Assembly (NCBI GenBank): GCA_963701085.1
Contig: OY969561.1
Coordinates: forward strand, 288,001 to 352,000
DNA length: 64,000 nt
Source: an uncultured bacterium
GTDB lineage: Bacteria; Babelota; Babeliae; Babelales; Vermiphilaceae
Direction of reading: 5' to 3'
The translations under genes were made by a program, and so were the position numbers. Numbering within the stretch: the stretch's first letter is position 1; each line of letters begins with the position of its first letter. Positions 9,904 to 57,289 of the stretch are shown one piece after another. The notes beneath the pieces were generated by a model that was given only the letters and a program-made list of their open reading frames with translations, was not told the origin of the DNA and ran no database searches.

Positions 9904-12583
9904 ATGAAAAATAACGTTAAATCCCAATTAATGGCTCATTGGATCCATGTTTTTGGGGCTCGTGAGCATAATTTAAAAAACATTGATGTCAGTATTCCTA
10001 AAAATAAGCTGGTTGTTATCACCGGCCCCTCTGGATCAGGTAAAAGCTCATTGGCGTTGGACATTCTCTTTGCGGAAGGTAAAAGGCGCTATGTAGAGTC
10101 TCTTTCTTCCTACGCACGTCAATTTTTGGGTATTTCCAAAAAGCCTGATGTTGACCGTATTGATGGCCTTTGTCCAGCAATTGCCATTGAACAAAAGACC
10201 GTTGGATCAAATCCTCGTTCCACCGTTGGTACCATTACGGAAGTATATGATTACTTTCGTATTCTTTTTGCGCGTATTGGTAAGGTTTTTTGCCCCAATT
10301 GTCGCTTAGAAATCAGGGCTGAGTCAGCTGAGGCTATTTGTCAGATGATGCATAAAGAATTTAATCATAAAACAATCTCAGTGTTGGCTCCTATTATCCA
10401 TGAGCAAAAGGGTGAATTTGTTCAGGAACTTATTCGTCTTTTTGAAAAGGGATACTATCGCATAAAAATTGATGGTGAGCGTTATAAATTTAGATCGTGC
10501 GATGAGATCAAAAGCTTAAATTTAAAAAAAAGTTATAAGCATTCCATTGATGTTATTATTGATTCCCTTGAAGTTAATAGTGATGATAGTGGGCGATTGC
10601 AAGAAGCTGTTGAAGCAGCGTTTAAGTTGGCCGGAGGCAGTTGCAAGATTACTATCGGTGAGCAAGAATATATTTATTCATCGCATCGTATGTGTATAGC
10701 ATGTTCACAATCAATTCCTGAATTAGAACCGCGCTGTTTTTCTTTTAACTCTCCTATTGGTGCTTGTAAAGGGTGCGAAGGTTTGGGAACTATTAATGAA
10801 TGGCCATGGAATGATGGTGACAAAGATTCATGGAAGGCCGAATATCCCGAATTTTTTGGTAATAAGTACGCAACGGTAAAAACATGTAAAGAATGTAACG
10901 GTAAGCGTTTGAATAAATATGCGTTGGCAGTACTTGTTGGCGGTAAAGATATTTATGAATTGAGTGAGCTTTCCATAAAACAACTTTTGCAGTTTTTTGA
11001 TTACTCTGGTGCTTAATCCGACAGAGTTGGAAATAGCTCAGGGTTTAATTCGGGAAATTAAAAGTAGACTTACCTTTATTAACGATGTTGGATTGTCATA
11101 TCTTACTTTAAATCGTACTGCACGTACGCTTTCCGGTGGAGAAGGGCAGCGTATTAGACTTGCATCGCAAATTGGTTCGGCATTAAGTGGTGTGCTTTAT
11201 ATTCTTGATGAGCCAAGTATTGGTCTGCATCAACGCGATAATGATCGCTTAATTGAAACATTAAAAAGCATTACGTGATCAAGATAATACGGTGGTTGTT
11301 GTTGAGCATGATATTGATACGATTACACAAGCTCGATTATGTCATTGATATGGGCCCTGCGGCAGGAGTGTTAGGAGGCAGAGTAACTGCTGTTGGAACG
11401 CCAACTGAATTGGGCAATAATAGTAATTCGTTAACGGGTGCATATTTAAGTGGAAAAAGATCTATTGTTGTGCCAAAGCAGTTAAGAAAACATCAAGGCA
11501 TGATGGTATTAGAGCATGCTGATAAACATAACTTACAAGATGTTACCTTACACGTGCCGCTTGGTGTGCTGTGTGGTGTATCTGGGGTATCTGGTTCTGG
11601 TAAAAGTACGCTTATTATGGATGAATTAGTTTCTGCGGTAAAACGTGAATTTTCCGGTGGATATAAGAGGGTCTATAAAAATAGTGTTGATAATTCAGTG
11701 AATTTGCAGGGTGCTGAAAGCTTACAAAGTTTGGTTGTTATTGATCAAAGTCCTATTGGCCGTACGCCACGTTCTAACCCCGCAACATATCTTGGTATTT
11801 TTGATGAAATAAGAAAACTTATTTGCAGCACTACCTGAAAGTAATGCGCGTGGATATACGGTAGGGCGTTTTAGTTTTAATGTTGCTGCAGGAAGATGTT
11901 TTGAATGTCGTGGTGATGGTGTTATAAAAGTTGAAATGCATTTCTTGCCGGAAGTTATTATGACGTGTAAAGCATGTGATGGTACGCGTTATAATAGTGA
12001 AACATTATCTATTACTTACAAAGGTAAATCTATTGCTGATGTGCTGAACATGACCGCTTATGAAGCATTATTATTTTTTGAACATCACAAAACAATCGCT
12101 AAACGTTTACAGTTATTATGTGATGTTGGTCTTGATTATCTTGCTCTTGGTCAGCCATCAACAACATTATCGGGTGGTGAAGCGCAACGTATAAAATTGG
12201 TAGATGAGTTAGCAAAGCGTGAACAGCATACGTTATATATCTTGGATGAACCGACAACGGGGTTACATAACAGTGATATTGAAAAATTACTGCAAGTTCT
12301 GAACTGTCTTGTTGATAAAAATAATTCAATGATACTGATTGAACATAATCTTGATGTGCTTAAAACGGTAGATTATCTCATTGATTTAGGTCCTGAAGGT
12401 GGTGATGGTGGTGGGCGTATTATTGCTCAGGGAACACCGGTGCAGGTTGCACAATGTGATGAAAGCTATACGGGACGGTACTTAAAGCCTTATTTTTTCA
12501 AGCCAGGATCAATTGAGAAATCTGATCCTTCGATACATTTTTTGAAGACAAAAAACACTCAGGATGAGCGGAAGAAAAAATAA
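9904..12583 (+). CDS. uvrA: Excinuclease ABC subunit A, split by about 4 single-base insertions (near 11001, 11266, 11334, 11820)
   Basis: [36 protein letters not shown] and [11 protein letters not shown] motifs spread over successive frames. Confidence 0.93.
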
Positions 12584-12645
12584 TACCAATCCCCGCTCGC
12601 CCTGAGTGTTCTACGAAGTGTAACGCAGTAGAATGTATCGAAGGG
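12526..12645. repeat. Family A doublet overlapping the uvrA 3' end
   Basis: tccttcgatacat..acactcaggatgagcgg, spacer gaagaaaaaataataccaa, then ccgctcgccctgagtg..tatcgaaggg. Confidence 0.9.
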
Positions 12646-12709
12646 TTGGGCGAACATTGAGAAAGTTATTGATTTTGTTACTCTTGAGCATAGAAAAATA
12701 AATAGTTTT

Positions 12710-23548: not shown

Positions 23549-23624
23549 TGCGCTCGTCCTGAGCCTGTCGAAGGATATCTTCGAGCGCTCTAGGAAACCC
23601 TTCAACAAGTTCAGGGCGAGCGCA
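23549..23624. repeat. Family A short doublet with central gagcgctc palindrome
   Basis: gcgctcgtcctgagcctgtcgaagga-tatcttcgagcgctctaggaaa-cccttcaacaagttcagggcgagcgc. Confidence 0.92.
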
Positions 23625-26577: not shown

Positions 26578-27138
26578 ATGAATTATATGAATATGCGGTA
26601 TGTCGTAAGTATGCTTGTTATGTTGCCATTGGCGATGAATGGCATGATGTGTCACAAATTAGCACCGGTTAAGAAAAAAGTTGTTTTTCAACAGCAATTG
26701 ACGCGGCGTTCATTTTTCCACAAGAATAGCTATTTTGATACGTTAATAGATGATCCACAATGGAGTATGATTGATGCTGATGAAGCGATTAGGAAAGAAG
26801 TAGCAACCGCTACATTATCTGGTAACGTTTTATGTCGTAACAACATAGCTGAAGTTCAAAACAAGATTGTTGATAAAGCAATTAAGTATAAGTCTATTAA
26901 TACAGTACTGCAGTATAGATTTGATAGAATAGATACACATAATAATGATTTTAATAAATACAGCTCCGATACAAAATATGCGTATCTTTTGAGGCAATTG
27001 CATCGACATGTAGAAGGAAAAGTTTGTAGTTGTAGGATGCATGAGAAAAGTAATGCGTGGTATAGTGCTTATGAAAATGATTTGGACAATATATCTTATG
27101 AATTGGATGCATTTGATGAAAGTTTAGAACGAGAGTAA
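26578..27138 (+). CDS. Putative secreted hypothetical protein
   Basis: GGAGG RBS; signal peptide followed by a basic, acid-free segment; start approximate. Confidence 0.65.
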   Translation: MNYMNMRYVVSMLVMLPLAMNGMMCHKLAPVKKKVVFQQQLTRRSFFHKNSYFDTLIDDPQWSMIDADEAIRKEVATATLSGNVLCRNNIAEVQNKIVDKAIKYKSINTVLQYRFDRIDTHNNDFNKYSSDTKYAYLLRQLHRHVEGKVCSCRMHEKSNAWYSAYENDLDNISYELDAFDESLERE

Positions 27139-38007: not shown

Positions 38008-38083
38008 GCGCTCGTCCTGAGCCTGTCGAAGGATATCTTTGAGCGCTCAGAAAGAAACCCTTCAACAAGTTCAGGGCGAGCGC
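38008..38083. repeat. Family A short doublet (like 23549-23624)
   Basis: gcgctcgtcctgagcctgtcgaagga...gagcgctc...cccttcaacaagttcagggcgagcgc. Confidence 0.92.
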
Positions 38084-45018: not shown

Positions 45019-45095
45019 GCGCCCGTAGCTCAGTAGGATAGAGCGACAGATTCCTAATCTGTAGGCCACAGGTTCAAATCCTGTCGGGCGCACCA
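45019..45095 (+). tRNA. tRNA-Arg(CCT)
   Basis: GCGCCCG acceptor stem, ACAGA-TTCCTAA-TCTGT anticodon arm, GTTCAAATCC, CCA end. Confidence 0.95.
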
Positions 45096-45209
45096 TACTT
45101 TGCTCCTCCTACGGAGGACTATTTTGATACAAAAAAAAGGCTACGTATGGCAGGCCAGTCTTCGTTTATTCCGCTCATCCGGAGCCTGTCGAAGGACGTA
45201 TGGCAGGCC
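45093..45209. repeat. Family B-type element starting at the tRNA CCA plus a family A arm (45171-45196)
   Basis: ccatac-tttgc-tcctcctacggagga..gctac-gtatggcaggcc; ccgctcatccggagcctgtcgaagga; second cgtatggcaggcc. Confidence 0.8.
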
Positions 45210-47884: not shown

Positions 47885-48016
47885 CCGCTCGCCCTGAGTG
47901 TCCTCCGAAGTGTTAACGGAGGAGGATGAATCGAAGGGGTAAGCGGAAAATATAAAGTCATTGTTCGATTGCACCCTTCGATACTTTTTTGCAAGCAAAA
48001 AAACTCAGGGCGAGCG
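47885..48016. repeat. Family A inverted doublet (arms 47885-47938 and 47974-48016)
   Basis: Same geometry and spacer ends (taagcggaaaa..attgcaccc) as 40-179; left arm holds a B-type hairpin cctcc-gaagt-gtta-acgga-ggagg. Confidence 0.9.
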
Positions 48017-48177
48017 CATTAAAACAATCGCAAAATTAAAATTTTAATAGATTTTGTATATTAATAGTTATTTTTTATATTAAATTAAATGTTATTGACT
48101 ATTTGATATTCTAAATGATATTCTTAAACCAGAAAAGGAAATGAATGAGGGAAGCATAAAAAAAATAAGGGGATGAG

Positions 48178-49461: not shown

Positions 49462-50889
49462 GTGATGCATTTTATTTGGGAAGATTTTTTAACTATTGTT
49501 AGAGAAGAGCTTGGTAGCCGTGTTGTAGAAACATGGTTTAAGGCTGTTTCCATGACCAAATGGGATAGTGCTGAAAAAGTTATTTATTTACAAACGCCTA
49601 ATGCATTTGTGTGTAACTGGCTCGAAAAAAATTACCGTTCTGTTTTTCAAACGCATCTTGGACGATTGCTTAATGTTGCTGATCCCAAAGTTGTATTTTT
49701 AACGACATCTTCCAAAAAAAGTGAACCTATTTTAGAGCAAAGTACTGAGTTGCAGGTCTCGCTTAATGATTCTCAAACACCACAGGAAAAAATGTATCGT
49801 CCGGCACAGGTTATTCCGTATGGTGCTAAAAAAAATACACTGACGGTTTCAAAATTGTCAGAACGGTACGGTCATATTAATAAAAAGTATGTGTTTGAAA
49901 CGTTTGTTGTGGGGCCAAGTAATTCTCTTGCGTATGCAGCGGCGTGTGCTGTTGCACAAAAGCCGGGTGAATTATATAATCCATTATTTCTTTATGGAGG
50001 TTCTGGCCTTGGTAAAACACATTTGCTCCACGCAATTGGCAATGCTATTCAAGCGAATAATAAAAAAGCCCTTGTTTTGTATCAAACAGCAGACCGATTT
50101 GTGAGTGAATTTATTAATGCAATTCGCTTTGATAAAATAGATCGCTTCCAAAAGAAATATCAGTTGGTTGATGTATTATTGATTGATGATATTCAATTTA
50201 TTTCTAATAAAGATACAACGCAAGAAGCTTTTTTCCATATTTTTAATTCACTCTACGATGCGCGCAAGCAGATTGTCTTTTCCAGTGACACTTTTCCACA
50301 AAATATTAATGGTATTGCTGAGCGGTTACGTTCACGCTTGTCATCAGGTATGATTGCTGATATTCATCAGCCGTGCATTGAAGTTAAAACAGCTATTTTA
50401 AAAAGAAAAGCTGAATCAAGTGGTGAGGTTTTGAGTGATGAAGTTGCTCATTTCCTGGCATCGCACGTTACTTCTAATATTAGAGAGTTGGAAGGAGCGT
50501 TGATACGAGTAATTGCCTTTGCACATTTAACCAAAGAGCCAATTGATTTGGCGCTGGTTCAAAAAGTTTTTTTTAATGATGATGAAGGTGTGGAAAAACA
50601 ATCAGTTGATTTTAAGGCGGTTGTTAAGGCTATTACAAAGCACTTTCCCTATTCATTGGATGAACTAAGATCAGAGAATAGGAACAAAGAGTTAGTTTTG
50701 GCGCGTCAACTTACTATGTATATCATGAAAAAACACACCAATAGATCTTTGCGAGAAATTGGTGCTTATCTTGGTGACCGTAATCATACAACGGTCAAAC
50801 ATGCGTTATCTAAAATAGAAGAATATCTTATTGAAGATGTAAAACTCCAACGGCAAATGAGCGCGATAGAAAAAGAGTTTGATCGGTAA
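49462..50889 (+). CDS. dnaA: Chromosomal replication initiator DnaA
   Basis: F.TFVVGPSN, YNPLFLYGGSGLGKTHL, LIDDIQF, RELEGAL and RNHTTV motifs. Confidence 0.97.
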   Translation: MMHFIWEDFLTIVREELGSRVVETWFKAVSMTKWDSAEKVIYLQTPNAFVCNWLEKNYRSVFQTHLGRLLNVADPKVVFLTTSSKKSEPILEQSTELQVSLNDSQTPQEKMYRPAQVIPYGAKKNTLTVSKLSERYGHINKKYVFETFVVGPSNSLAYAAACAVAQKPGELYNPLFLYGGSGLGKTHLLHAIGNAIQANNKKALVLYQTADRFVSEFINAIRFDKIDRFQKKYQLVDVLLIDDIQFISNKDTTQEAFFHIFNSLYDARKQIVFSSDTFPQNINGIAERLRSRLSSGMIADIHQPCIEVKTAILKRKAESSGEVLSDEVAHFLASHVTSNIRELEGALIRVIAFAHLTKEPIDLALVQKVFFNDDEGVEKQSVDFKAVVKAITKHFPYSLDELRSENRNKELVLARQLTMYIMKKHTNRSLREIGAYLGDRNHTTVKHALSKIEEYLIEDVKLQRQMSAIEKEFDR

Positions 50890-50908
50890 ATTACCACTTC
50901 AATGCACA

Positions 50909-51136
50909 CCCTTCGATACATTTTTGCAGGCAAAAACACTCAGGGCGAGCGGTCCTTCGCTACATTTCGAAGACGAAATACTCAGGATGAGCGGAAGAAA
51001 AAAGATTATAATACCAAACCGCTCGCCCTGATCCATCGATACGTTTTGAAGACAAAACACTCAGGATGAACGGAAGAAAAAATAATACCAAACCGCTCGC
51101 CCTGAGTGTTTTTGCTTGCAAAAATGTATCGAAGGG
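50909..51136. repeat. Cluster of five family A arms downstream of the GIY-YIG gene
   Basis: Arms at 50909-50952, 50953-50994, 51019-51031 (partial), 51032-51073 and 51093-51136. Confidence 0.92.
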
Positions 51137-51149
51137 TGCGGATTAATTA

Positions 51150-51440
51150 TCATCTGTTAAATTTTTTCTTTGCTGATAATGAAAGATCTGCCCAATTTCC
51201 TTTAATTAATGCCTCTTTTTTACGTCGGTTCCATTTTTTTATTTGACGTTCAGCATGAAATGCTTCATCTCGGGTCCCAAAGGATTGCACAAACACAATT
51301 TCTATAGGTAAGCGATGGGAAGTATAGCCATTATATTCACTCAGATGGTGTTCAGAAATTCGTTTTTCAATATTATCAGTATGTCCAACATAATAAGAAT
51401 CATCACTACATTTTAAAATATAAGTAAAAAAATCGCTCAT
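51150..51440 (-). CDS. Small GIY-YIG nuclease (UPF0213/YhbQ-like)
   Basis: YILKCSDDSYYVGHT..R..EH..YT..RLP..ERQIKKW.R.KK.ALI; GAGG RBS. Confidence 0.92.
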   Translation of the reverse strand: MSDFFTYILKCSDDSYYVGHTDNIEKRISEHHLSEYNGYTSHRLPIEIVFVQSFGTRDEAFHAERQIKKWNRRKKEALIKGNWADLSLSAKKKFNR

Positions 51441-51483
51441 TTTACCTCAAAAACATTAATAAACACGTTATTTTTAATGTGCA

Positions 51484-51658
51484 CCCTTCGATACATTTTT
51501 GTAAGCAAAAACACTCAGGGCGAGCGGAGGGGGGACATGTATAATATCTTCCGTGTATTCTGAGTGCCCCATCAGGAGCGTATTGAAGGAACGCTCATTT
51601 CTTCCCGCTCATCCTGAGTGTTCTCCGAAGTTTTAACGTAGGAGAATGTATCGAAGGA
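51484..51658. repeat. Cluster of three family A arms upstream of the GIY-YIG gene
   Basis: Arms at 51484-51527, 51551-51590 (degenerate) and 51605-51658. Confidence 0.9.
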
Positions 51659-51663
51659 TAAAA

Positions 51664-52728
51664 CTACCATTTCAATGCACAAGGGTTGATTTTGCATTGA
51701 GCCATGCGGCGATCATTTTTTGTTTGAAGAAATGCGTCTTGGAAGTATTTTGCCCCGAGATAGAGGTACCATTCAAGATGGTTATTGAAAAATGGTTCTT
51801 CTTGTAATCCAACAATTGATGGAAAGTGTTCAGTGTCCACAATGCTCATATGATATTCATCGGTGTCTTTTTGGTGCTTAATAACAAAGTTGTCCGCGTG
51901 AGGATCAACAAACAGGTGGAGATCCATGCAAAGCTCCATGATAAGTTCGCTCTTTTGTTGGGATGATAATAGTGGTGCATTTTCTTTTATATCAATAGTA
52001 TCAGCAACGATAGCATAGACACTTGGCATAAGCGTGGATATCTCTTTTTTGCCACCGATGTTGTAGCCCTTAATTTCCATCCAACGATGTTTTTGAGGTA
52101 GCCAATACCATTTGCGTGGTGTTTTTATTTTACCATTCCAACGGGGATGGTCATCTATCTGTTTTTTCACTAATTCGAGATTTTTGACTCGGGTTAATCC
52201 TGCAATATGACGATTCATGCCACCAGACATGTAAAAAAAGAACTGGTTCTCAAATCCCTTGCAATAAGGATCGATAAATGATTTTGGTGTTTCCATGAAT
52301 AGTTTTAGGACAAATGGATAGTTTTTAAATTGCAATACCAACAGGCCGCATTTTTCTTTATAATTAAAATTTTTGTCTTGTAAGACTATAAAATGAGTGT
52401 ACAGTTTTTTCTGTTTTTTAAGTTCCCTAAGCAACCGCTCGATGCATGAATTGAGCTCGAGACAATTAAATGATGTGCTAGGGTCGTTTATATCATTGAT
52501 ACAATCAGTCGGCAGCATGTGATTGAAGAAATATTCTTTATTGAATGAGGTAAAGATTGGGTACTCTTTATACGCCCAATTGGTGTGAGAGATTACTTTT
52601 TTTACATTTTTCCATCCGATGGTTATTTTAGGCACATCCTTGTCTTTTTTTCTAAAAGGACTGCGCGCTAGCAGATTGGATGAAAAAGTTAAAAAAGTAC
52701 AAATAATGAGAAGTATGGCTCTTTTCAT
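51664..52728 (-). CDS. Putative secreted protein with kinase-like motifs
   Basis: Signal peptide; FVLKLF, DPHADNF and IVDTE motifs. Confidence 0.55.
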   Translation of the reverse strand: MKRAILLIICTFLTFSSNLLARSPFRKKDKDVPKITIGWKNVKKVISHTNWAYKEYPIFTSFNKEYFFNHMLPTDCINDINDPSTSFNCLELNSCIERLLRELKKQKKLYTHFIVLQDKNFNYKEKCGLLVLQFKNYPFVLKLFMETPKSFIDPYCKGFENQFFFYMSGGMNRHIAGLTRVKNLELVKKQIDDHPRWNGKIKTPRKWYWLPQKHRWMEIKGYNIGGKKEISTLMPSVYAIVADTIDIKENAPLLSSQQKSELIMELCMDLHLFVDPHADNFVIKHQKDTDEYHMSIVDTEHFPSIVGLQEEPFFNNHLEWYLYLGAKYFQDAFLQTKNDRRMAQCKINPCALKW

Positions 52729-56703: not shown

Positions 56704-57138
56704 ATGAAAATTGCTATTGGTGCTGATCATCGCGGTTTTTTGCATAAAGAGTTTATTAAAGAACATATGCCATCAATTGAATGGATTGATGTTGGCACGT
56801 ATAACCAGGATCGCACAGATTACCCCATTTTTTCTGACAAGGTTATTGATTTGATACATACTCGTGCTGTGCAACTAGGGGTGTTAATTTGTGCCTCTGG
56901 CGGTGGTATGGCGATAGCGGCAAATAGGAATAAACATATCTATGCTGTTGTTGCATGGAATGTTGACATTGCGCGGCAGTGTAAACAAGAAGATAATGCT
57001 AATGTTTTGGTGTTACCGTCTGATTTTGTTTCTTGTGATGATGCCGTTGTAATGATTACTGAGTGGCTTGCGCAAGAGTTTAAGGGTGGGCGGTATGCTG
57101 AGCGTATTGCAATGATTGACCCTTCGATACACCCCTGA
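56704..57138 (+). CDS. rpiB: Ribose-5-phosphate isomerase B
   Basis: IGADHRG, DYP, ICASGGGMAIAAN, NANVL and FKGGRY..R motifs. Confidence 0.93.
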   Translation: MKIAIGADHRGFLHKEFIKEHMPSIEWIDVGTYNQDRTDYPIFSDKVIDLIHTRAVQLGVLICASGGGMAIAANRNKHIYAVVAWNVDIARQCKQEDNANVLVLPSDFVSCDDAVVMITEWLAQEFKGGRYAERIAMIDPSIHP

Positions 57139-57260
57139 CGGGGCACTCAGGGTGATCGGGGGAGATGTATTTAGTCTTGGAGAGAGTGCATTTTATTTTA
57201 TGAGATTGTTACCATCCCGCTCGCCCTGAGTGTTTTTGTCCTCAAAAAAGTATCGAAGGG
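57120..57260. repeat. Family A doublet overlapping the rpiB 3' end
   Basis: cccttcgataca-cccctgacggg-cactcagggtgatcgg and ccgctcgccctgagtg..tatcgaaggg. Confidence 0.88.
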
Positions 57261-57289
57261 TAAAGCGGGGTAAAATAAATGTTTTATAA

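Follow-up and report, generated by a model that had tools for sequence, protein, structure and literature searches.

A small GIY-YIG nuclease gene and its hairpin repeats in a Dependentiae genome: evidence for a nuclease-repeat pair that might be selfish or semi-domesticated

Why does a nuclease gene of only 96 amino acids lie enclosed by eight copies of a short hairpin repeat directly downstream of dnaA, and do gene and repeats belong to one system? The question is raised by a stretch of 64,000 nucleotides (hereafter the window; positions 288,001 to 352,000 of contig OY969561.1, GenBank assembly GCA_963701085.1) from an uncultured member of the Dependentiae/TM6 (Babeliales), whose single-contig genome comprises 1,198,634 bp with 37% G+C and is 92.6% complete. 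Our analysis revealed that nuclease and repeat form a pair and that their link is not due to chance. With a probability of roughly 60%, we consider this pair to be a selfish or semi-domesticated nuclease-plus-hairpin-repeat system that is built like the Ssn/NTS system but belongs to a separate, UPF0213-like clade and uses a different hairpin. Ssn is described in the text of Chenal et al. (Nat Commun 2025, PMC11893778) as a single-domain GIY-YIG family (CDD cd10448) whose genes are flanked by NTS/SRM hairpin repeats that also occur dispersed in the genome.

The repeat cluster of 773 bp starts directly 3' of dnaA (49462-50889) and encloses the nuclease open reading frame (ORF). Its repeat copies are referred to as arms, and P1 denotes their stem as described below. 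The following features were identified:

50888-50908, plus strand: 21-nt direct repeat, copy 1, which duplicates the 3' end of ORF 51664-52728
50908-50952, plus strand: outer arm, 94% complementary to 51092-51144
50954-50994, plus strand: arm with inner hairpin ATTTCG/CGAAAT, followed by a conserved spacer
51019-51031, minus strand: truncated arm, tail only, 13 nt, CCGCTCGCCCTGA
51031-51073, plus strand: arm with inner hairpin GTTTTG/CAAAAC
51093-51527, unstranded: cassette of left arm, nuclease gene and right arm, 435 bp, delimited by blastn homology to non-syntenic copies in sister species
51093-51139, minus strand: left cassette arm, head towards the nuclease gene (P1 stem, TCGATAC, inner hairpin TTTTTGC/GCAAAAA, ACTC, GAGCGG tail)
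51150-51440, minus strand: GIY-YIG nuclease gene, 96 amino acids, single domain (PF01541, E 1.6e-17)
51481-51527, plus strand: right cassette arm, head towards the nuclease gene (arm pattern, inverted-repeat pairing)
51551-51589, minus strand: degenerate arm
51605-51659, minus strand: outer right arm with long inner hairpin TTCTCC..GGAGAA
51661-51681, plus strand: 21-nt direct repeat, copy 2, the true 3' end of ORF 51664-52728 (minus strand)

These coordinates bear out the local picture drawn by an earlier note on this DNA, which had described a stand-alone GIY-YIG gene enclosed by eight arms with the two nearest ones inverted. Of the eight arms between 50909 and 51658, six are clear, one is degenerate and one is reduced to a truncated tail, and the two gene-proximal arms are inverted with heads inward, the pairing extending over 80 nt (51093-51172 with 51448-51527, 83% complementary). 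The outer arm at 50908-50952 forms a tail-to-tail doublet with 51092-51144, and further arms are enclosed by it. The whole window contains about 27 arms at 14 loci when the hairpin-less variant is counted together with the hairpin-bearing one, close to the about 30 arms at about 15 loci claimed before. In the nuclease itself PF01541 covers residues 5-75; no second domain was found in Pfam, and an NCBIfam search assigned no family.

What is an arm? The common plan consists of a 5-bp covarying stem (P1), a conserved loop TCGA..CTC and a GA(G/A)CGG tail. Arms of the window type carry a second, inner hairpin within the loop, in the order (GC)ACCCT-TCGATACA-(variable hairpin)-CACTC-AGGGC-GAGCGG. 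A second arm type of the same genome has no inner hairpin, e.g. ATCCT-TCAACAAGTTC-AGGAT-GAGCGC. P1 was analyzed in an alignment of 50 distinct hairpin-less arms beside nuclease genes of many phyla, which were chosen on loop and tail anchors only, so that the fixity of TCGA, CTC and tail in this alignment is partly a product of that selection. The 5 nt preceding TCGA pair with the 5 nt that follow CTC in 88.8% of cells as compared to 66.1% after shuffling (reached by 0 of 500 shuffles), slid controls paired at 24-47%, and double-sided changes numbered 64 against 23.5 expected. A wider set of 173 arms gave 621 of 865 cells paired (500 +/- 9 expected), and GC, AU, CG and GU pair types were all observed at P1 positions. 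Each arm is thus under selection to form P1 around the conserved TCGA..CTC loop, with a conserved tail. The inner hairpin occurs in 51 distinct versions, which represent more than 10 classes of stem within a single fixed frame, and is at least 5 bp long in 71% of them versus 20% when shuffled.

Arms were mapped genome-wide, as the earlier note had proposed. The strict whole-arm pattern matched 187 times in the 1.2 Mb genome, compared with 0, 0 and 0 matches in three first-order Markov genomes, and the reversed pattern had 0 matches in each of the 41 genomes searched (40 relatives and the host). The 10-mer arm head with up to 2 mismatches gave 53 matches against 31.9 +/- 6.0 expected, a number reached by 0 of 100 shuffles. 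Arms are mostly intergenic, with only 44 of the 187 lying mostly inside long ORFs, although such ORFs make up 83% of the genome, and they are often found directly 3' of stop codons. Nearly all arm pairs in the genome are inverted, 36 of them being head-to-head and 21 tail-to-tail, and only 3 pairs are tandem.

Does the association of gene and arms hold beyond the window? Three further small paralogues with 58-60% identity to the window protein (tblastn) were found in the genome, and all three are tightly bracketed by inverted hairpin-less arms of 44-55 nt, heads inward and 91-95% complementary. The four nuclease copies belong to two clades, the window copy to clade A and the other three to clade B; a clade-B enzyme is encoded at genome positions 1102879-1103169. 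When 185,579 species genomes were searched for two peptide words, 113 relatives were obtained, of which the best 80 were examined. In the 40 relatives used for arm-pattern searches, homologues with at least 53% identity almost all have inward flanking arms. At least one inward-facing arm within 250 nt of the gene was present at 92 of 103 distinct homologues with at least 44% identity, and both sides were occupied at 57 of 103, as compared to 6 of 188 control windows located 700-990 nt away from homologue genes; the count of 92 comes from a broader pattern, since the TCGA-only pattern misses a TCAA variant of the host's genus. Below 44% identity, an arm was found at 1 of 15 homologues. Nearly the same motif occurs at most of the 80 loci examined in the species-genome scan, which belong to Babeliales, Sphingomonadales, Burkholderiales, Chloroflexota, Myxococcota, Binatia and others.

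The type of arm follows the nuclease as well. Hairpin-bearing arms were found at seven of eight loci with at least 65% identity (the window's own excluded), and most loci at 54-64% identity carry plain arms. Among 16 genomes with a close homologue, 14 contain arms, as compared to 10 of 25 genomes without one (median arm counts 37.5 vs 0; Fisher p 0.0035, computed on relatives that are not independent). Six genomes of the genus with a clade-A nuclease contain 37-107 hairpin-type arms, and five without it contain 0, 2, 9, 12 and 88. Nuclease clade and arm type therefore go together within the genus and across phyla. The enrichment of flanking repeats in this subclade and their covariation with nuclease phylogeny, both named as tests in the earlier note, were thus found.

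Two observations on individual copies may be added. One clade-B paralogue (genome positions 1091357-1091704; L003:1489-1836) has no stop codon before its right arm and reads through, which adds about 20 repeat-encoded residues. A fifth small GIY-YIG frame lies at genome positions 843882-844097 on the minus strand (L005; 84 amino acids open, PF01541 E 3.2e-15, about 26% identity to the window protein), and no flanking inverted arms were found there.

A position between genes and directly after stop codons, a structure conserved with G-U pairs and the read-through into one right arm would also be expected if arms acted as RNA, i.e. as terminators, stabilisers or regulatory hairpins, and if their link to the nuclease gene were one of cis-regulation. 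We consider this very improbable. Arms are equally frequent on both strands, no strand or replichore bias was detected among the 187 genome arms, and they occur mainly as inverted pairs. The same motif placed inverted on both sides of the gene across phyla is the pattern of a DNA element. Rfam at gathering scores reported four tRNAs and nothing else in the window, and at relaxed E-values only weak hairpin look-alikes far under the cut-off in the cluster and 20 cross-phylum loci. SsnA did not act on RNA according to the text of PMC11893778. A self-cleaving ribozyme identity (hammerhead or twister-like) had been considered for the arms and was dropped because the Rfam matches were such look-alikes far below the cut-off.

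Are the many arm pairs without a gene related to the nuclease cassette? The doublets described for the window are as follows:

40-179, unstranded: gene-less head-to-head doublet of hairpin-bearing arms (single-stranded DNA (ssDNA) fold a four-way junction, -46.6 kcal/mol, z -11.4)
12525-12646, unstranded: tail-to-tail doublet with a conserved spacer that is also present at 50995-51018
23550-23623, unstranded: 74-bp head-to-head doublet of hairpin-less arms (fold -21.7 kcal/mol, z -4.8)
38008-38083, unstranded: 76-bp head-to-head doublet of hairpin-less arms (fold z -5.5)
47885-48017, unstranded: gene-less head-to-head doublet
57121-57261, unstranded: tail-to-tail doublet, left head directly after a stop codon, in a region that is shorter in the relative G001 and whose intergenic DNA is too diverged from G001 for a base-level empty-site comparison

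The two doublets that had been noticed before (40-179 and 47885-48016, the latter ending at 48017 here) are real and head-to-head. As ssDNA, doublets are predicted to form very stable four-way or long hairpin folds (z -4.8 to -11.4). In the genome, 30 of the 36 head-to-head doublets are gene-less palindromes of 65-76 bp, equal to a clade-B cassette minus its gene, and the doublet at 23550-23623 is the gene-less form of the host's other three nuclease cassettes. In these three clade-B cassettes the gene occupies the middle of the palindrome and is bounded by direct repeats (3-8 nt) of the central GAGCGCTC. Gene-less doublets, which outnumber cassettes by about 10:1, look like derivatives of the nuclease cassette, as the earlier note had supposed in calling them non-autonomous.

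A gene placed exactly at the palindrome centre, with short direct repeats at its bounds and a large excess of gene-less doublets, might alternatively be a homing-type passenger. The doublets would then spread otherwise, by host replication or repair errors or by an unknown enzyme, and the ORF would invade their centre through cleavage of gene-less copies, into which repair would then copy it. Many GIY-YIG enzymes are homing endonucleases. We nevertheless judge such an origin to be quite unlikely. It leaves the multiplication of arms unexplained in a genome in which four transposase families were searched: the Y1 transposase PF01797 had 0 matches at E<=1, and rve (PF00665), DDE_Tnp_1 (PF01609) and TnpB (PF07282) had no match. 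The absence of a RAYT/IS200-type gene, previously stated for the window, was thereby extended to the genome. Furthermore, the abundance of arms tracks the presence of the nuclease, and single arms also occur alone and nested. Classical homing needs cleavage of double-stranded DNA (dsDNA), which Ssn enzymes did not cut according to the text of PMC11893778.

Nested arms were observed as a plain arm in the inner-hairpin loop of a hairpin-bearing arm (genome 526562-526634, and in two relatives at G004:C8:6914-6975 and G002:C1:9325-9390). Such nesting is a hint at hairpin loops as targets of insertion, and the hairpin-bearing type may itself stem from it. Other associations give the repeats the appearance of mosaics, like bacterial interspersed mosaic elements (BIMEs). 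Many 74-bp doublets have a 16-nt module, AAACTAATTTTTTCCY, next to one of their tails, either on the left (e.g. at genome positions 208018, 363311, 793285 and 909780) or on the right (e.g. at 26681, 326083 and 680320), and other 74-bp doublets are adjoined by a AGCGAAGATCTGAACG-like module. A composite repeat in the window (45171-45207), in which CCTGCCATAC.. is fused to a plain arm, lies about 80 nt after a tRNA gene (45019-45092) and recurs at genome position 56111.

Has the cassette moved as a unit? In blastn comparisons cassette similarity runs from arm to arm and never into the 1.5-kb flanks, which delimits the window copy to 51093-51527. Homology of the window locus to the copies in G010, G007, G002, G009 and G003 extends from about 1406-1441 to 1770-1875 of the locus sequence (L007) and reaches both arms in G010 (L009), G007 (L010) and G009 (L029). 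For one paralogous cassette, copies with 85% and 82% identity were found in G004 and G006, respectively, where they occupy unrelated sites. Empty sites are present in relatives, where the earlier note had suggested looking for them: in G001, G006, G008 and G010 there is either no gap or one of about 20-70 bp between dnaA and its convergent downstream gene, and the neighbours of another cassette, a serS-like and a DUF58-like gene, are separated by 11-21 bp in G004, G005 and G007. The 435-bp cassette is a discrete unit that is located at different chromosomal sites in sister species, and the signs of its mobility are clear. Plasmid and phage collections contained 8 and 7 records with matches, the best being two Sphingomonas plasmids and one Methylobacterium replicon at 38-46% identity and the rest YazA-type genes, so that no vehicle is evident from these collections.

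Further details were seen at individual cassette sites. At the dnaA site a 21-nt direct repeat flanks the whole 773-bp cluster (19 of 21 positions identical) and is single-copy in the empty-site sequence of G001. The left copy, just after the dnaA stop codon, keeps a pseudo C-terminus and the stop codon of the downstream gene. A duplication of 21 nt is unusually long for a transposon, and we know of no mechanism that accounts for it. The downstream gene itself, ORF 51664-52728 (minus strand, 354 amino acids), has a signal-peptide-like start and no Pfam family, is convergent with dnaA and conserved across the genus. In another case a 1.35-kb insert between two genes contains an ORF for a membrane-like protein of 187 amino acids (L002:685-1248, genome about 230842-231405) in addition to arms and a nuclease cassette; the genes flanking this insert lie 11-21 bp apart in three sister species.

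Cassettes at non-syntenic sites with sharp boundaries are not what would be expected of a domesticated host function, in which arms would be kept for host benefit and the enzyme would act in ssDNA restriction or recombination control, as proposed for SsnA/NTS in Neisseria. In the text of PMC11893778, a knockout of SsnA in Neisseria meningitidis led to about 5-fold more transformation with NTS-bearing DNA. The location of arms mostly between genes, their persistence in genomes without a nuclease gene and the fact that cassettes are as diverged as host genes agree with such a role. Four nuclease copies of two clades in one genome, arms nested in other arms and near-identical motifs across phyla speak against it, as does the patchy distribution of arms among close species (0 in G001 vs 189 pattern matches in G000); all these features resemble those of a mobile element. 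As the sole explanation we regard host benefit as unlikely. The data are consistent with a domesticated role in recombination control, which may exist alongside mobility.

How might a selfish or semi-domesticated nuclease-plus-hairpin system work? Four purified Ssn members bound their hairpin only as ssDNA and cut it a few nt upstream (text of PMC11893778), so that the earlier note's statement that no demonstrated mechanism was known for repeat-flanked GIY-YIG genes is outdated. The same note had made the GIY-YIG enzyme the partner that recognises, nicks or spreads the arms. The pairing held, with three of three paralogues and the 92 of 103 homologues mentioned above, and binding, nicking or spreading of arms by the nuclease is inferred by analogy from Ssn, which belongs to a different clade. 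An arm would fold when DNA becomes single-stranded during replication, repair or uptake, and the nuclease would bind loop and tail sequence-specifically and nick a few nt away. The tags at an NTS-flanked ssnA locus face outward, and the Ssn cut maps 5' of the tag in the text of PMC11893778. If this NTS-ssnA geometry holds, the strand that begins with CCGCTC would be the substrate and nicks would be placed at the outer ends of both arms. These predicted nick sites coincide with the ends of cassette homology. A GIY-YIG enzyme cannot rejoin DNA, and therefore new copies would need host repair or replication, which could start at the nicks and either copy DNA into hairpin loops or switch templates from arm to arm. 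The nested arms together with the position of the gene at the palindrome centre suggest that hairpin loops are preferred targets.

Several results weigh against this reading. The analogy to Ssn crosses clades, at 38% identity with gaps (89 amino acids aligned to an NTS-flanked SsnA orthologue, 45.8 bits). A careful tree, built from 29 rows of three groups with the other 86 of 115 rows excluded, places the clade of the window protein (support 93/87) beside YhbQ-like proteins, with the SRM-flanked clade standing apart (92/85); the split of window clade plus YhbQ-like proteins from the SRM clade has support 92/84, and one group of window clade and SRM clade is not rejected in the approximately unbiased test (p 0.31). 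Flanking arms were not found by pattern at 11 of the 103 homologues, some of which have diverged arms visible by eye. G004 has 88 hairpin-type arms with a clade-B gene only, in an assembly of 90 contigs with arms at contig ends, and G005 has 46 arms with no close nuclease detected, likewise G017, G018 and G034. Either arms outlive the enzyme or the gene falls in assembly gaps in such genomes.

On the side of mobility, cassette copies have diverged to much the same degree as host genes (82-85% vs 76-83%), therefore their movement is not recent. Neither a consistent target-site duplication nor a target motif was seen by eye beside 52 two-armed cassettes; the 21-nt repeat at the dnaA site is the sole duplication seen. 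Contigs of four public runs over 50300-52300 contained no readable excision joint; they were short and mostly repeat copies from elsewhere. The one joint listed for these contigs was rejected as excision, its sides being separated by 38 other letters that mark another copy. The best DNA runs share 0.27 and 0.25 of words with the query, and no RNA run was listed. With respect to folding, lone arms fold weakly (z 0.5 to -0.75), and the predicted fold of doublets is one of arm pairing with arm, not of P1.

A more far-reaching possibility, which we put forward only tentatively and hold to be doubtful at present, is a second nuclease-plus-hairpin mobile family, possibly independent of Ssn, i.e. a true nuclease-only transposon present in at least six phyla with a near-invariant recognition loop. 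The enzyme would nick ssDNA at arm ends, and host repair would copy arms, doublets or the cassette into the loops of other hairpins. If true, this would be the first case of a GIY-YIG enzyme driving a DNA transposon in bacteria. Should the enzyme cut at the arm hairpin, it would offer a new and very widely conserved specificity among site-specific ssDNA nucleases, enzymes that are in demand as tools; the arm motif differs in kind, the recognised bases being located in a loop that is closed by a stem free to vary. The selfish or semi-domesticated system favoured here extends the nuclease-plus-repeat lifestyle beyond the Ssn clade and into the Dependentiae, with about 190 arm copies in a small genome. 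Boundaries, empty sites, gene-less derivatives and nested arms bear on how repeats multiply with a partner enzyme that can only cut.

Which known systems does the pair resemble? REP/REPIN elements and their RAYT enzymes share with it an enzyme gene that lies between inverted copies of a short hairpin repeat of its own, inverted doublets, intergenic mosaic clusters and one or few enzyme genes per genome. In contrast to these, no Y1/HUH gene (PF01797) was found in the host genome, the arms have no GTAG tag, and the enzyme is a hydrolytic GIY-YIG nuclease incapable of strand transfer. Miniature inverted-repeat transposable elements (MITEs) are similar in having terminal inverted repeats, a gene-bearing form together with many short gene-less forms with the same ends, and insertion polymorphism in relatives; MITEs and DNA transposons differ from the present system, for which no known transposase fold was found among the four families searched, no regular target-site duplication could be made out by eye, and the ends are structured hairpins rather than plain terminal inverted repeats. 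CGTC-tagged palindromic repeats (Di Nocera, De Gregorio and Rocco 2013, PMC3733652) are likewise short palindromes without a dedicated transposase that often occur as dimers, and include Neisseria dRS3, later tied to Ssn. They are defined there by an unpaired CGTC tag and a CCA-like tail, whereas in our arms CGTC is present only in some variants, inside the covarying stem, and the tail is GA(G/A)CGG.

The protein itself is closest to UPF0213. The best solved-structure matches are the UPF0213 proteins 1zg2 (E 1.7e-13) and 1ywl (E 2e-11), the alignment to E. coli YhbQ is ungapped (28% identity, 50.1 bits, pairwise E 1e-14), and identity to Firmicute YazA-type genes is 41-43%. Together with the adjoining position in the tree, this makes the UPF0213 placement of the earlier note reasonable, and the window clade appears to be UPF0213-like with a YhbQ-like nearest clade, at modest support. 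UPF0213 genes are generally single-copy housekeeping-type genes. In contrast, the window clade is multi-copy, non-syntenic and repeat-flanked, and two YhbQ-like genes (L170, L174) have no flanking arms of either type.

The closest parallel in build is Ssn. The window protein is also a single-domain GIY-YIG protein (96 versus about 95 amino acids), inverted hairpin repeats flank the gene and lie dispersed and mostly intergenic in tens to hundreds of copies, and Y7, Y17 and E64, invariant in the four paralogues, align with the mutated SsnA residues Y6, Y17 and E64, numbered after primer names in PMC11893778. NTS-ssnA-NTS was likened to an insertion sequence and to RAYT/REP by its authors (text of PMC11893778). 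The repeats themselves differ: conserved bases of our arms are those of loop and 3' tail with a varying stem, whereas NTS conserves a CGTC tag and stem, the published Ssn substrates carrying a CGTCAT-type tag outside a conserved GC-rich stem. This distinction from SRM/NTS is based on the text, Methods consensus and oligonucleotide table of PMC11893778, and the repeat logos for Rhizorhabdus and Wolbachia might be closer. The SRM consensus (HGTCWY..RNCYNB) had 0 matches in the host genome (0, 1, 0, 0 and 0 in simulated genomes) and overlapped 0 of 91 arms; it was found near 0 of 103 close homologues versus 5 of 15 distant ones, including NTS-flanked SsnA orthologues. In the Burkholderiales-level sample, one genome (G111; loci L169, L174, L175) contains 27 NTS repeats and a homologue 55-56% identical to the window protein with the arm motif nearby, besides two small GIY-YIG genes, one YhbQ-like (L174) and one in the SRM clade (L175). 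As it carries both repeat kinds, the NTS/SRM and arm systems can coexist.

The sole Dependentiae row of Chenal et al., Babela, lists 0 SRM and no Ssn (PMC11893778). Our literature searches retrieved no description of the arm motif, nor of the window nuclease clade as a mobile element. The architecture of a nuclease gene flanked by hairpin repeats has been published since 2025 with Ssn/NTS (text of PMC11893778); new here are a distinct GIY-YIG clade, a distinct and widely conserved hairpin and the occurrence of such a pair in the Dependentiae.

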